Virus record (IMG/VR): IMGVR_UViG_3300005046_000005
Location: 1,745 to 65,744 of that record
Direction: 5' to 3' (one strand)
Source: a virus
Taxonomy: Duplodnaviria; Caudoviricetes
Length of the DNA: 64,000 nucleotides
This document shows positions 1-64,000 of the stretch, piece after piece. The notes beneath the pieces are model-generated. The model was not told where the DNA came from, did no database searches, and saw only the letters and a list, made by a program, of their open reading frames with translations. The position numbers and the translations under genes are program-made. Positions within the stretch are counted from its first letter, which is position 1; the number at the start of each line of letters is the position of its first letter.

Positions 1-406
1 ATATACATTTTAGAACCTTCACTTTTAAAGATTAACGGCTGTTTTCATTTGAGAACTTTAATTCAGCTAATAAAGCTGCATCATTTTTAATAAACTGCAC
101 TTGTCCTTTGGTTTGATTGTTTACTTGATGAATCGCTATGCACCTAAGCGGCTTAGGTTGTTTGTCTTTCGATCTATCAAAAGTCTATTCGTACAAAACG
201 CTGTAAGCGATTGGAATTAAAAGCAATCCATCTATAAACAATCTTAGTTTTGAGTCTTATATGGTAACTCACCAGCCTAGGCTAGTAATTCGACAACGGA
301 CTTTGCAACTTTTCACAGTAAGGCTGTGACATTATGCTTTGATACTCACCCGCTAGGGCTTTCATAACCAGTAACCTAGAACAGCTTTTCCGTTGTTCTT
401 TGGTAT
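1..406 (-). ncRNA. Candidate large structured ncRNA, 3' end outside the window
   Basis: No ORF >=60 aa. Nested complementary segments 115-123/235-243 (9 bp), 131-137/207-213 (7 bp) and 293-300/389-396 (8 bp). Hairpins or palindromes at 142-158, 271-286 and 313-329. Promoter immediately upstream. Confidence 0.5.
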
Positions 407-412
407 GAATGC

Positions 413-441
413 AGTATATGGAATATGGTAATTAAAAGCAA
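413..441 (-). promoter_or_regulatory. sigma70-like promoter TTGCTT-17-TATACT pointing into the ORF-free structured region
   Basis: Reverse complement of 413-441 read directly. Confidence 0.6.
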
Positions 442-630
442 GCAATCTATTTAAAATAACTTGTAAATATGTCTAAGAATTTTATAAGTGTATGTTTTCA
501 AAAGAATTAAATATTCAAATTTTATTAATTATTTTCAAAATTATTTAGTCTTTAGATCAGATTCAGCCATTACTAAACTGTTTATAGCTAAAAGTAAGTT
601 AAACCTAGCTTTTATATATACGCACACGCA

Positions 631-658
631 CGTATATCAACTGGCAGTTAATTGTCAA
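631..658 (-). promoter_or_regulatory. sigma70-like promoter TTGACA-16-(TG)TATACG
   Basis: Consensus -35 with an extended -10, in an AT-rich intergenic region. Confidence 0.45.
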
Positions 659-882
659 GCTATTTGTCAATATTTTTGTAAAAATAAGGGTATTCAAAAA
701 CCCTGTAGAAAACTTATAAGAAGAATAGAATAGCAACTTTCAAAACCCCTCCCTTAAATATTTTCAAAGGCACAGGTCTGGACTCTATCAGGGTTTCGGC
801 AGAATATTTTAGAACCGACAGGTCTGGAACGAAATAACCCTCCTACAGAAAGTTCCATAGGAGGGTTTGATATTAAACTGAA

Positions 883-1722
883 TTAAAAGGCTGGGATCTC
901 TTTCATCTTAGTTAATCCAGCTTCTTCTACCTCTCGCAGCGCATCTCGGCATGTACGCAATTGCATCTTATGCTGACCGAAGAACCCAGTCGAAGGCGCA
1001 GCAATAGCATTGGAGAATAGTAAATCAAAGCTGTTATTTTTCTGCTGGACTGGAACAACTTCAAGAATGTTCCAATGATGGAAGCGCTGAAGCATTTTAG
1101 TACGGTATTTCTGCTGATAACCGTACAGATCACCTACTTGGATCAGCAAGTTCTGTTTGTTGCCAAGTTTGAACAGGCTAGTCGTCCAGATTGCAACACC
1201 ATCTGACCATGCTTGACAGATATTGTAGGCGAAGTTGTCAATGTTTAAGGTTGGTGTCTGCATTGCTATCAGCTGGAATACAAGACCACGGTGCGTAAAC
1301 TCAAACACATGCTGAACAAGCGGATTCTGTGTGTAGTTTAAGAAGGCATCATCCATAAAAGCTACATTTGCACAGGTAGGATTTAGCGGATGATTCAGCA
1401 GTTTGATCTTCATCTTCGGAAAGATTGATTCAAGTATCTTCAATGTAATCTGAGCGCTCTCTGCATTACAGCTGGCAGAAATAGGTAAATGAAAGAAGAT
1501 GTCAACATCTTTTGCTAGGGTGTTATTGAACCAGTCACGGGCAGCACCGCCTGCAATGATAGCCTTAGTATCAATACTACGAAGGGTGTCCAGAACGCCT
1601 TTAGCTAGAAACATCTGCTTCATAACAAAGCGATCTTGGTTATACGGTATTACATAAGACACATCTGGCATACCTAAAGCAACGGGTTTATGGTTTAACA
1701 AAGCTTCATTGTGCTTGTTCAT
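883..1722 (-). CDS. Class II nucleotidyltransferase (tRNA CCA-adding / poly(A) polymerase head-domain-like)
   Basis: IIAGGAARDW..TLAKDVDIFF matches the GGxxRD...DxD signature. Confidence 0.7.
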   Translation of the reverse strand: MNKHNEALLNHKPVALGMPDVSYVIPYNQDRFVMKQMFLAKGVLDTLRSIDTKAIIAGGAARDWFNNTLAKDVDIFFHLPISASCNAESAQITLKILESIFPKMKIKLLNHPLNPTCANVAFMDDAFLNYTQNPLVQHVFEFTHRGLVFQLIAMQTPTLNIDNFAYNICQAWSDGVAIWTTSLFKLGNKQNLLIQVGDLYGYQQKYRTKMLQRFHHWNILEVVPVQQKNNSFDLLFSNAIAAPSTGFFGQHKMQLRTCRDALREVEEAGLTKMKEIPAF

Positions 1723-15399: not shown

Positions 15400-15609
15400 T
15401 TAATCAGCTAAGTGCATGAGTTTTTCATGAATTGGTTCACGGCCACAAGGTAGGTCACAACCTACATCTGACTCTACCAGATATTTGTTTACATAACCTT
15501 CGTTGCAATCTGCCTTCTCAAGCAATTTAGCAGCTTCCTCTAAAGACTCCGCTTCAACTTTGTAAGTTGCTTCCCCAGCAAGCGGAACTGTGAATGAAAA
15601 TGCTGGCAT
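15400..15609 (-). CDS. Small hypothetical protein
   Basis: ORF coupled to the upstream gene. Confidence 0.6.
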   Translation of the reverse strand: MPAFSFTVPLAGEATYKVEAESLEEAAKLLEKADCNEGYVNKYLVESDVGCDLPCGREPIHEKLMHLAD

Positions 15610-15833
15610 TATTCAGTCACCGTAATCAGTTGCTGAGGGTAGCGCTTAACAGTAGCTGAAACAGCTTCTGCACCGCGGCGATAACGTTCTTCACGTTCGT
15701 AGTTAACATGCACAGTTTTATCTGTGATCTTTTCTACAGTTCCGATCTTAAACTTGTGATCACCTTGAACTGGAACTTGCAGAAGGTAGACTTTCATACC
15801 GACTTCCAGCTTTACACCGTTTAAACTTATCAC
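15609..15833 (-). CDS. Small hypothetical protein (GTG start at 15833)
   Basis: AGGAG 7 nt upstream of the GTG. Confidence 0.6.
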   Translation of the reverse strand: MISLNGVKLEVGMKVYLLQVPVQGDHKFKIGTVEKITDKTVHVNYEREERYRRGAEAVSATVKRYPQQLITVTE

Positions 15834-38442: not shown

Positions 38443-38457
38443 TATCCTTTCCTCTTG

Positions 38458-39000
38458 TTAGTAAGACCGCAGAGCCTTCTCAAAGATCCGAGCTTCACCT
38501 GCAATCTTTTCAGCTTTATCAGAACCGTTGATAACGGCTCTAGCTGCTTCGTAGTCGCGTTTTGTCTTTGTAACGTAGTCAGATAGCTTAAGGGTAGTAA
38601 ACCAGCCCTCTAAGCTCCCTACAACGATAATCTCAGCTGCATAAGCAGGCTCTTGTGCCAAAAATGGATTCTTCAGCATTGCATCGCCTAAACCTAGCTT
38701 CTGACCAGCCTTCTTGTAATTGTAATCCCAAGTCAGCTGAACATAGCCTCTGCCGTAGTAAGGGTAATAGTGCAGATTCTTCTGACGCCACGCTTCAGAC
38801 AGCCAGTAAGCTTCAATCACTGGCAGCATGGTTCTATTTGTCTCATGCCACGCTGTAGCTAACACGTAAGCAGCTTGGTTGTATTCAAGCTTATGTTTCT
38901 CGCAAGCTTGAACCAAAGTGTTAATTGACTTTACTTGCTGAGTGCTGAGCTTCCCGAAAGCTTCTCGGAGGATGTCAAACCCTCCAGCTGTCATTTTCAT
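38458..39000 (-). CDS. Endolysin, glycoside hydrolase family 19
   Basis: YVLATAWHET, YYGRGYVQLTW..NY and AR.VING.D. Confidence 0.9.
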   Translation of the reverse strand: MKMTAGGFDILREAFGKLSTQQVKSINTLVQACEKHKLEYNQAAYVLATAWHETNRTMLPVIEAYWLSEAWRQKNLHYYPYYGRGYVQLTWDYNYKKAGQKLGLGDAMLKNPFLAQEPAYAAEIIVVGSLEGWFTTLKLSDYVTKTKRDYEAARAVINGSDKAEKIAGEARIFEKALRSY

Positions 39001-62929: not shown

Positions 62930-63019
62930 TGGTACTTCCGACAGGGATCGAACCTGAATCAAGCCGTTATCTACGGTAAGCGGTTATAAATCGCCTTGCT
63001 TTCCATAAGCTACGGAAGT
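62930..63019 (-). tRNA. tRNA-Ile(UAU)-like with a long variable arm and encoded CCA
   Basis: Acceptor stem ACTTCCG/CGGAAGT, then A-CCA; D stem GCT/AGC; anticodon loop TT-TAT-AA; variable stem CCGT/ACGG; T loop GGTTCGATCCC. Confidence 0.85.
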
Positions 63020-63182: not shown

Positions 63183-63289
63183 AAAGAGGGGAAATTTTAG
63201 ATAAAAAAAATTTACTAAGTCTAAGAACGTTATTGGAATGTTTTCTGAATCCCCGTTGCTAGACTTAGTAAATTTAAATTTTAAAGGGC

Positions 63290-64000
63290 TGAGATTAAAC
63301 CCTTTATTAACCGTCTTGAGAGGATTATTGCTTCCCTCCTTATCCACAAGCTTTTAACTTGTCTCGGTCAGTGCTAGTCAGTTGAGCTAACCACCCTATA
63401 ACATTAAAACTACTCTCCTACTAATCACTCTGCGCTAGTATGCCTACCAAACACAAAACTTTCATAGAAATATCTAAAACCTTTCGAGCCTTAGATGCAG
63501 CTGACAACCAGCTACTATGTAAGCACTTTTCATTTTAATGTGCGAAACACTTTTGAAAAAGATTACCTTTAATCGAAAGTTAGTTTAATTGGTTATACCT
63601 AGTGGTTTCGCTGTAGTTAACAAACCTTTTGAGTCCATCAATCCTACACTAGATATTGTGCTTTATCATGCACGTTGTTTTAAGCTTGCACCGCAGATGT
63701 TGGTACATCTAGCATCTAGGCTCAGCACCACCTGATTACCTAACTTGCATCTTTTAACAATACAGTAAAGCGTTCCTGTTTGACGACAAGCTTCGCTCTA
63801 AAGCTACAAGTTCTCTTATTGTCTCTCGACTCAAAAGCATTACGCCTTCAACCTCTACCGCACCGATTAGCTCTGGCTTCAGTTGATACCTTGTTTGCAT
63901 ACTCAATAGCGCAGGCATTGCACCTGAACTACGCCCCAGATACCATCTGGAACTTTATCCTGTTTTGCAGTTTATCTAAGACTATATGCAGCCTATTAAA
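63290..64000 (-). ncRNA. GOLLD-like large structured RNA candidate (5' end probably outside the window)
   Basis: No ORF >=60 aa; long-range helices 63828-63837/63626-63635 and 63712-63718/63492-63498; several hairpins; adjacent to a tRNA; short motifs recalled from GOLLD occur in order. Confidence 0.6.

Follow-up and report, generated by a model that had tools for sequence, protein, structure and literature searches.

The small stable RNAs rnaC and rnaD of phage T4 (species 1 and 2) are structured and arise from a longer transcript. In phage HK022, putL and putR specify an antiterminator RNA, and in phage P4 the CI RNA arises by processing of its own operon's leader. These promoter-proximal leader RNAs are about 70 nt long and form two stem-loops. 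Among uncultured viruses, IMG/VR has yielded about 10,000 structured-RNA candidates, with motifs of 29–151 nt and at least three unique sequences required of each (PMC10690425).

We analysed a 64,000-nt stretch of phage DNA (the window), which corresponds to positions 1745–65744 of IMGVR_UViG_3300005046_000005 (G000), a linear record of 65,744 bp without end repeats and with an estimated completeness of 82%. We propose, with modest confidence, that window positions 115–370, read on the minus strand, are the core of a non-coding RNA that is structured and conserved, lies outside the described families and is likeliest to be a discrete early RNA. An earlier note, made from the window alone, had seen at its left edge a large, ornate phage RNA that could not be assigned. 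The leftward, promoter-driven, multi-helix character of the RNA and its lack of a family hold, but the core is smaller than was thought, at 256 nt, or about 290 nt when counted from the probable start.

The core lies in an ORF-free gap (window 9–882) between two minus-strand genes (Table 1). The promoter that the note had placed here, TTGCTT-17-TATACT on the minus strand (441–413), is exactly as described, and window 1–441 contains no ORF of 60 aa or more, as claimed. The note had also named an ORF spanning the region, once the flank was seen, as something that would count against the RNA. The record continues for 1,744 nt to the left of window position 1 with co-oriented minus-strand ORFs, none of which spans the candidate: the nearest, of 81 aa, starts at window position 8, and beyond it come a 242-aa ORF, a 147-aa ORF and a truncated one.

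Table 1. Features at the left edge of the window. Coordinates are window positions unless prefixed with G000; the two arms of a helix are separated by a slash, and changes refer to base pairs compared with the relative G001.
Feature	Coordinates	Strand	Basis or remarks
Pol-beta-type nucleotidyltransferase, 279 aa	883-1722	minus	phrog_10174 and phrog_1614
Intrinsic terminator, 14-bp stem	836..867	minus	ends upstream nucleotidyltransferase gene; equivalent in G001
AT-rich spacer upstream of promoter	445..835	minus	composition, G001 alignment, repeats
-35-like hexamer TTGCTT	436..441	minus	read directly and by pattern match; TTGTAT aligned in G001
-10 hexamer TATACT	413..418	minus	identical in G001, then shared ...TCATACC
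5' hairpin just after inferred start	374..404	minus	-7.9 kcal/mol (z -2.5)
Domain 1	245..370	minus	helices H1-H6
H1	370-363/252-245	minus	invariant
H2	337-335/307-305	minus	invariant
H3 hairpin	329-324/318-313	minus	2 double changes; UC...GA to CU...AG
H4	302-299/256-253	minus	invariant
H5	295-291/264-260	minus	2 double changes
H6	288-283/274-269	minus	2 double changes
Domain 2	115..243	minus	helices H7-H10
H7, 21-bp long-range helix enclosing H8-H10	243-222/137-115	minus	5 double changes, 1 single, 0 broken
H8	214-204/155-143	minus	2 double changes
H9	199-193/165-160	minus	1 double change
H10	185-182/175-171	minus	1 double change
Linker to next gene	9..114	minus	unstructured (fold z +0.48), not alignable with G001
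81-aa ORF	G000:1507-1752 (ATG at window 8-6; first 8 nt are window 1..8)	minus	ORF call

Annotation searches on the neighbouring genes gave nothing informative on the role of the RNA. The GGxxRD...DxD head of the upstream nucleotidyltransferase weakly matches class II CCA-adding enzymes (PDB and NCBIfam; E 0.004–0.06); the protein has no match in a local copy of Pfam, and its AlphaFold model (pLDDT 43.8) is too poor for a fold search. Its homologues include P0001 (97% identical) and P0002 (43%; on a contig of 12.9 kb). Downstream, the 81-aa protein belongs to a small basic family, for which the ESM Atlas returned nothing. The 147-aa protein (G000:164–607, minus strand; phrog_17696) carries a RWDDxCGNGxNSFAIT motif and has homologues, 38–43% identical, in Shewanella phage KASIA, Achromobacter phage JWF, Pseudomonas phage Lana and Providencia phage Stilesk; these occupy early or terminal-repeat regions of their phages, as in KASIA.

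Comparison was made with a relative reached through the large terminase, IMGVR_UViG_3300036944_000627 (G001; 43.9 kb), whose terminase is 81% identical in amino acid sequence. G001 matches window 121–343 at 78% nucleotide identity over 225 nt (E 1e-46) and has the same gene order: nucleotidyltransferase, terminator, long gap, RNA block, 81-aa homologue and 147-aa homologue. In two further relatives, G002 (L004:1001–2735) and G003 (L005:933–2667), the match to the terminase gene covers 1,735 nt rather than about 1,400, with 17 stops in its straight translation, which suggests an insertion (an intron or homing element) or frameshifts in that gene. Whole-genome blastn of G000 against G001 gives ten alignable stretches in all. 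The best two are a block around a GOLLD RNA near the right edge of the window (63198–64000; 78.6%) and the RNA block (77.8%), with head, tail and terminase genes at 64–75%. The flanking proteins are 39%, 41% and 52% identical; the 41% belongs to the homologue of the 81-aa protein, which is 103 aa long and stands at the same position. The RNA is non-coding and is conserved as well as GOLLD, while the neighbouring proteins have fallen to around 40% identity. Past the ends of the closing helices, conservation drops off abruptly.

Measured against the consensus the promoter is weak, TTGCTT matching TTGACA at three of six positions. Taken by itself it is within chance, such a site occurring in 43 of 100 shuffles, and it is absent from the list of an automated sequence scan. 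Its weight comes from its conservation in G001, where it reads TTGTAT-16-TATACT. An A at window 406, about 7 nt past the -10 hexamer in both phages, is the inferred start. The hairpin that follows has an unrelated sequence in the two phages and is present in both; in G001 it has 7+2 bp (-11.7 kcal/mol) and is not significant alone (z -1.2). We envisage that a host σ70 polymerase would start near 406, past the terminator of the upstream gene, which insulates the transcription unit of the RNA from the nucleotidyltransferase gene. The RNA would then lead an early gene block from its own host-type promoter.

The RNAalifold consensus of the two minus-sense sequences contains 70 pairs in ten helices, arranged in two closed domains. 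Fifteen of these pairs are changed on both sides, four on one side and none is broken; every substitution in paired columns keeps pairing. The covariation that the note had asked of homologues is therefore present, in two sequences, G000 and G001, a sample that rules out phylogeny-aware covariation statistics (R-scape). Helices H1, H2 and H4 never vary and are thus predicted pairs without support from covariation; H1 has an alternative partner, in which GUUAUG would pair with CAUAAU at 336–331. Domain 1 also contains a 19-nt variable stretch (362–344).

Several local pairings had been proposed from the window alone. The complements 115–123/235–243 turn out to be the outer part of H7, and the hairpin at 313–329 exists and carries two compensatory changes in G001, where the hairpin at 271–286 is roughly kept. 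A pairing given as 131–137/207–213 is really 131–137/206–212 and is broken in G001, where 127–137 pairs with 222–232 (C–G to U–A). The hairpin at 142–158, the pairing of 389–396 with 293–300 and the GGTGAGT repeat (ACTCACC at 267–273 and 344–350 on the plus strand) occur in this phage only.

Because RNAalifold itself rewards covariation, controls were run. Column shuffles gave 4.4±1.8 compensated pairs (maximum 10 in one set of 300 and 9 in another of 200) compared with the 15 observed, and none of 500 reached the observed compensation. Their consensus energies were -19 to -21 kcal/mol, against -47.6 kcal/mol for the real alignment (z -6.5 to -7.9). When the 3' partners were slid by one to three columns, pairing fell to 32–40% with zero to two compensated pairs, whereas in the unslid alignment all are paired. 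The fold of each single sequence, transferred to the other phage, kept 58 of 80 and 62 of 77 pairs, with 9–10 compensated (0–3 when slid). Compensation thus goes beyond the shuffled null, the generic test of a structured RNA, on two sequences. H3 and H7 are common to the two single-sequence folds, which diverge elsewhere within both domains and leave the fine structure provisional. Window 1–441 as a whole folds at -107.3 kcal/mol on the minus strand (z -3.4; plus strand, z -1.9). Together, the comparative data indicate a predicted ten-helix, two-domain fold that has been kept by compensatory substitutions under purifying selection.

The strand is well defined. In the minus sense the consensus reaches -47.6 kcal/mol, z -7.9 and 15 compensated pairs, compared with -34.2 kcal/mol, z -4.0 and nine pairs in the plus sense; the minimum free energy of the G000 sequence is -73.5 on the minus strand and -59.4 on the plus strand. 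In H7, three invariant G–U pairs, which would be A–C on the plus strand, precede a covarying C–G/U–A pair. Fold and G–U pairs fit the minus strand, the one on which the conserved promoter and all neighbouring genes also lie.

No coding signal was found in any of the six frames, each of which has at least four stops per sequence, and the substitutions show no third-position excess. A conserved AUG at 365–363 on the minus strand, inside H1, opens a frame of 27 codons (23 in G001). We rejected it as a gene: all seven differences in its conserved part fall at codon positions 1 or 2, four of the seven constitute the two H3 compensatory pairs, and the stop codons are differently placed. It is very improbable that the block is such a short ORF, or that it has no function and is an exchanged or decaying segment with chance structure, even though two sequences represent it and the AUG-started frame is open in both. 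The preservation of pairing by all substitutions in paired columns, matched by none of the shuffles, speaks against the absence of function, and the codon positions of the changes against the peptide.

The DNA upstream of the promoter has features of its own. Window 451–600 has a GC content of 14–19%, and within this region the sub-block 453–515 shows 77% identity to G001. The stretch may serve as an UP element, as a site for a regulator or in unwinding. Further upstream, but short of the nucleotidyltransferase terminator, there are two exact 11-nt copies of TCCAGACCTGT (772–782 and 818–828, minus strand, 46 nt apart), which could be operator sites for a DNA-binding protein; the matching place in G001 holds three CCAGACC-like copies. 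An AT-rich stretch and paired repeats next to a promoter and a structured transcript recall the layout of transcription-primed origins, and the locus might be a DNA or replication element, either an origin in the style of ColE1 RNA II or of T7/T4, or a protein-binding region. We regard this as improbable. Cumulative GC skew turns elsewhere, near 20 kb and 38 kb; the promoter has the AT-rich part on its upstream side rather than its downstream side; and strand-specific G–U pairs together with compensatory changes are signs that an RNA fold is under selection, which would still allow a primer RNA.

A terminator scan found no minus-strand intrinsic terminator after the core, that is after H7, in either phage; transcription therefore probably continues into the downstream genes. 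In our proposal the transcript would open with the 5' hairpin, followed by both domains (about 290 nt together), and run on into the 81-aa gene and later genes. Such an arrangement raises the main alternative to a discrete RNA, a structured 5' leader that acts in cis on the early operon of the 81-aa, 242-aa and 147-aa genes. By analogy, a leader might work through processive antitermination, as the HK022 put RNA does, through stabilisation of the mRNA, or through autoregulatory binding by a protein encoded downstream. In favour of a leader, the fold directly follows the promoter and no terminator separates it from the co-oriented genes; a member of the same family of small basic proteins comes next in both phages; and eight relatives have neither that protein nor the RNA. 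Yet the distance from the core to the next start codon is 107 nt here and about 263 nt in G001, across a linker that is unstructured and unalignable, and no expression platform was found: no Shine–Dalgarno-sequestering element adjoins the fold, and the platform and fixed distance to the start codon by which a riboswitch or cis-leader would be recognised are both lacking. At 256 nt and ten helices the RNA is also far larger than known antiterminator and leader elements. The co-occurrences of the RNA with GOLLD and with the flanking proteins all come from one lineage and so count as a single observation. We consider the leader a serious alternative but a less likely one.

A discrete, stable early RNA, used directly or cut from the operon transcript, is the reading of the folded block that we tentatively adopt, with roughly even chances of being right. 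It is favoured by the abrupt limits of conservation at the closing helices, by the two closed domains and the 5' hairpin, by the lack of an expression platform and by a linker that is variable in length and unstructured; the missing terminator fits a 5' leader at least as well. A discrete RNA would use its many invariant unpaired stretches to bind a protein or some other macromolecule, rather than sense a ligand for the next gene.

We also considered whether the RNA belongs to one of the giant phage RNAs. At gathering thresholds, Rfam 15 reports a single RNA in the entire window, GOLLD (RF02032) at 63286–63656 on the minus strand (201.5 bits). The conserved block around it runs to the contig end, so the 5' part of GOLLD may be cut off. 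Besides a new class, the earlier note had entertained two possibilities: that the left-edge RNA is an upstream part of the right-edge locus in a circularly permuted genome, or that it is ROOL-like. GOLLD lies on the same strand, and both phages that carry the new RNA carry GOLLD as well. Nevertheless, the left flank is occupied by protein genes over its 1,744 nt, and on the single contig of G001 GOLLD (15449–15818; 206 bits) and the new RNA (38455–38721) are 22.6 kb apart. The circular order of the two RNAs is the same in both genomes, and in G000 they are therefore separated by 1.9 kb at the left end plus the missing part of the genome. A permissive Rfam 15 scan (E up to 10) of window 1–900 and of the G001 copy found no family common to both copies. 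The matches on one copy were noise (shuA_thermo and UCA1, E 3.6–5.7), the other copy had none, and neither copy matched GOLLD or ROOL (RF03087) even at that threshold. A model of the new RNA (R1) finds exactly one copy in each of the two genomes and nothing inside their GOLLD loci, and three GOLLD-bearing Acinetobacter phages contain no match to it. Contiguity with GOLLD and membership of an Rfam family are refuted, and the chance that the RNA is part or a relative of a giant RNA is negligible.

The GOLLD of G000 is 67–72% identical to unannotated copies inside the tRNA clusters of Acinetobacter phages (vB_AciJM_313, Ab15, YMC13/03/R2096, Bestia, Herod, AM24 and P577), a likeness that gives a hint of a Moraxellaceae-like host. 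The annotation of Ab15 has small 'hypothetical protein' CDSs across its GOLLD. The one tRNA gene that ARAGORN finds in the window, tRNA-Ile(UAU), lies at 62930–63019. Neither RNA copy contains a tRNA-like module (ARAGORN at the lowered threshold ps85) or a Y-RNA-like match in Rfam, such as a substrate of the adjacent CCA-type nucleotidyltransferase might show, and no conserved antisense target 9-mer was found for the RNA; the RNA and GOLLD have a 9-mer in common, but it has the same sense in both and is no more than chance would give.

Searches of viral, metagenome, genome and GenBank phage collections gave no third member. In GenBank phages, blastn of window 1–900 found nothing, and single-protein scans of IMG/VR with two flanking proteins were equally empty. 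Alignment-based scans that used the nucleotidyltransferase and the 147-aa protein as queries returned only G001 and the complete relative G005, which has the enzyme without the RNA; in G001, as here, the enzyme stands next to the RNA. Exact-motif scans of IMG/VR returned G001 only. A two-block motif scan of JGI metagenomes gave three chance matches with no further similarity, and a motif scan of 185,579 prokaryote genomes gave three, in Bacteroidota MAGs. Model R1 found no copy in 12 further terminase relatives (45–70% amino acid identity, four of them complete) or in four phages with a homologue of the 147-aa protein. The terminase relatives also have no 81-aa or 147-aa protein, GOLLD or nucleotidyltransferase, with G005 (enzyme) as the exception. 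With two members, the RNA is a candidate rather than a characterised class.

An uncultured phage lineage thus carries a second RNA beside GOLLD, held as tightly while the adjacent early genes diverged. At about 290 nt it is compact and hence a tractable target. The pair could be the founding members of a new RNA class that partners the nucleotidyltransferase, as substrate, guide or regulator, or GOLLD, as a second RNA component of its activity, and that acts early in infection on host RNA metabolism or defence. We hold this unlikely; if the RNA does act with either, it would offer a handle on the long-standing problem of what GOLLD and ROOL do.

The RNA resembles the candidates of the IMG/VR catalogue (PMC10690425) in coming from an IMG/VR intergenic region and in its evidence from covariation; set against the description of that catalogue, not its sequences, it is longer and has two known copies. 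Given the motif lengths and the three-sequence rule, it is unlikely to be included there.

The T4 RNAs rnaC and rnaD are likewise small structured phage RNAs. Model R1, run with filters off over T4 69000–74000, scored at most 5.5 bits, with no match on rnaC or rnaD, and unlike the new RNA these two lie in a tRNA cluster. With HK022 put and P4 CI the analogy is one of layout: an operon opens with an early promoter that a structured RNA follows immediately, and no terminator intervenes. In a comparison made by description only, the new RNA is distinguished by its ten helices in 256 nt, and a terminator scan of the genes downstream of it showed no terminators to override.

ROOL is, like the new RNA, a structured RNA of phages and prophages, but the new RNA is much smaller and outside RF03087. 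GOLLD is multi-helix, phage-borne and strongly conserved, and it is found in the same two phages as the new RNA. The two differ in size (about 700–800 nt for GOLLD against the 256-nt core), in their separate loci and in the lack of a covariance-model match, and while GOLLD, here and in the Acinetobacter phages, lies beside or within tRNA clusters, the new RNA stands away from tRNA genes.
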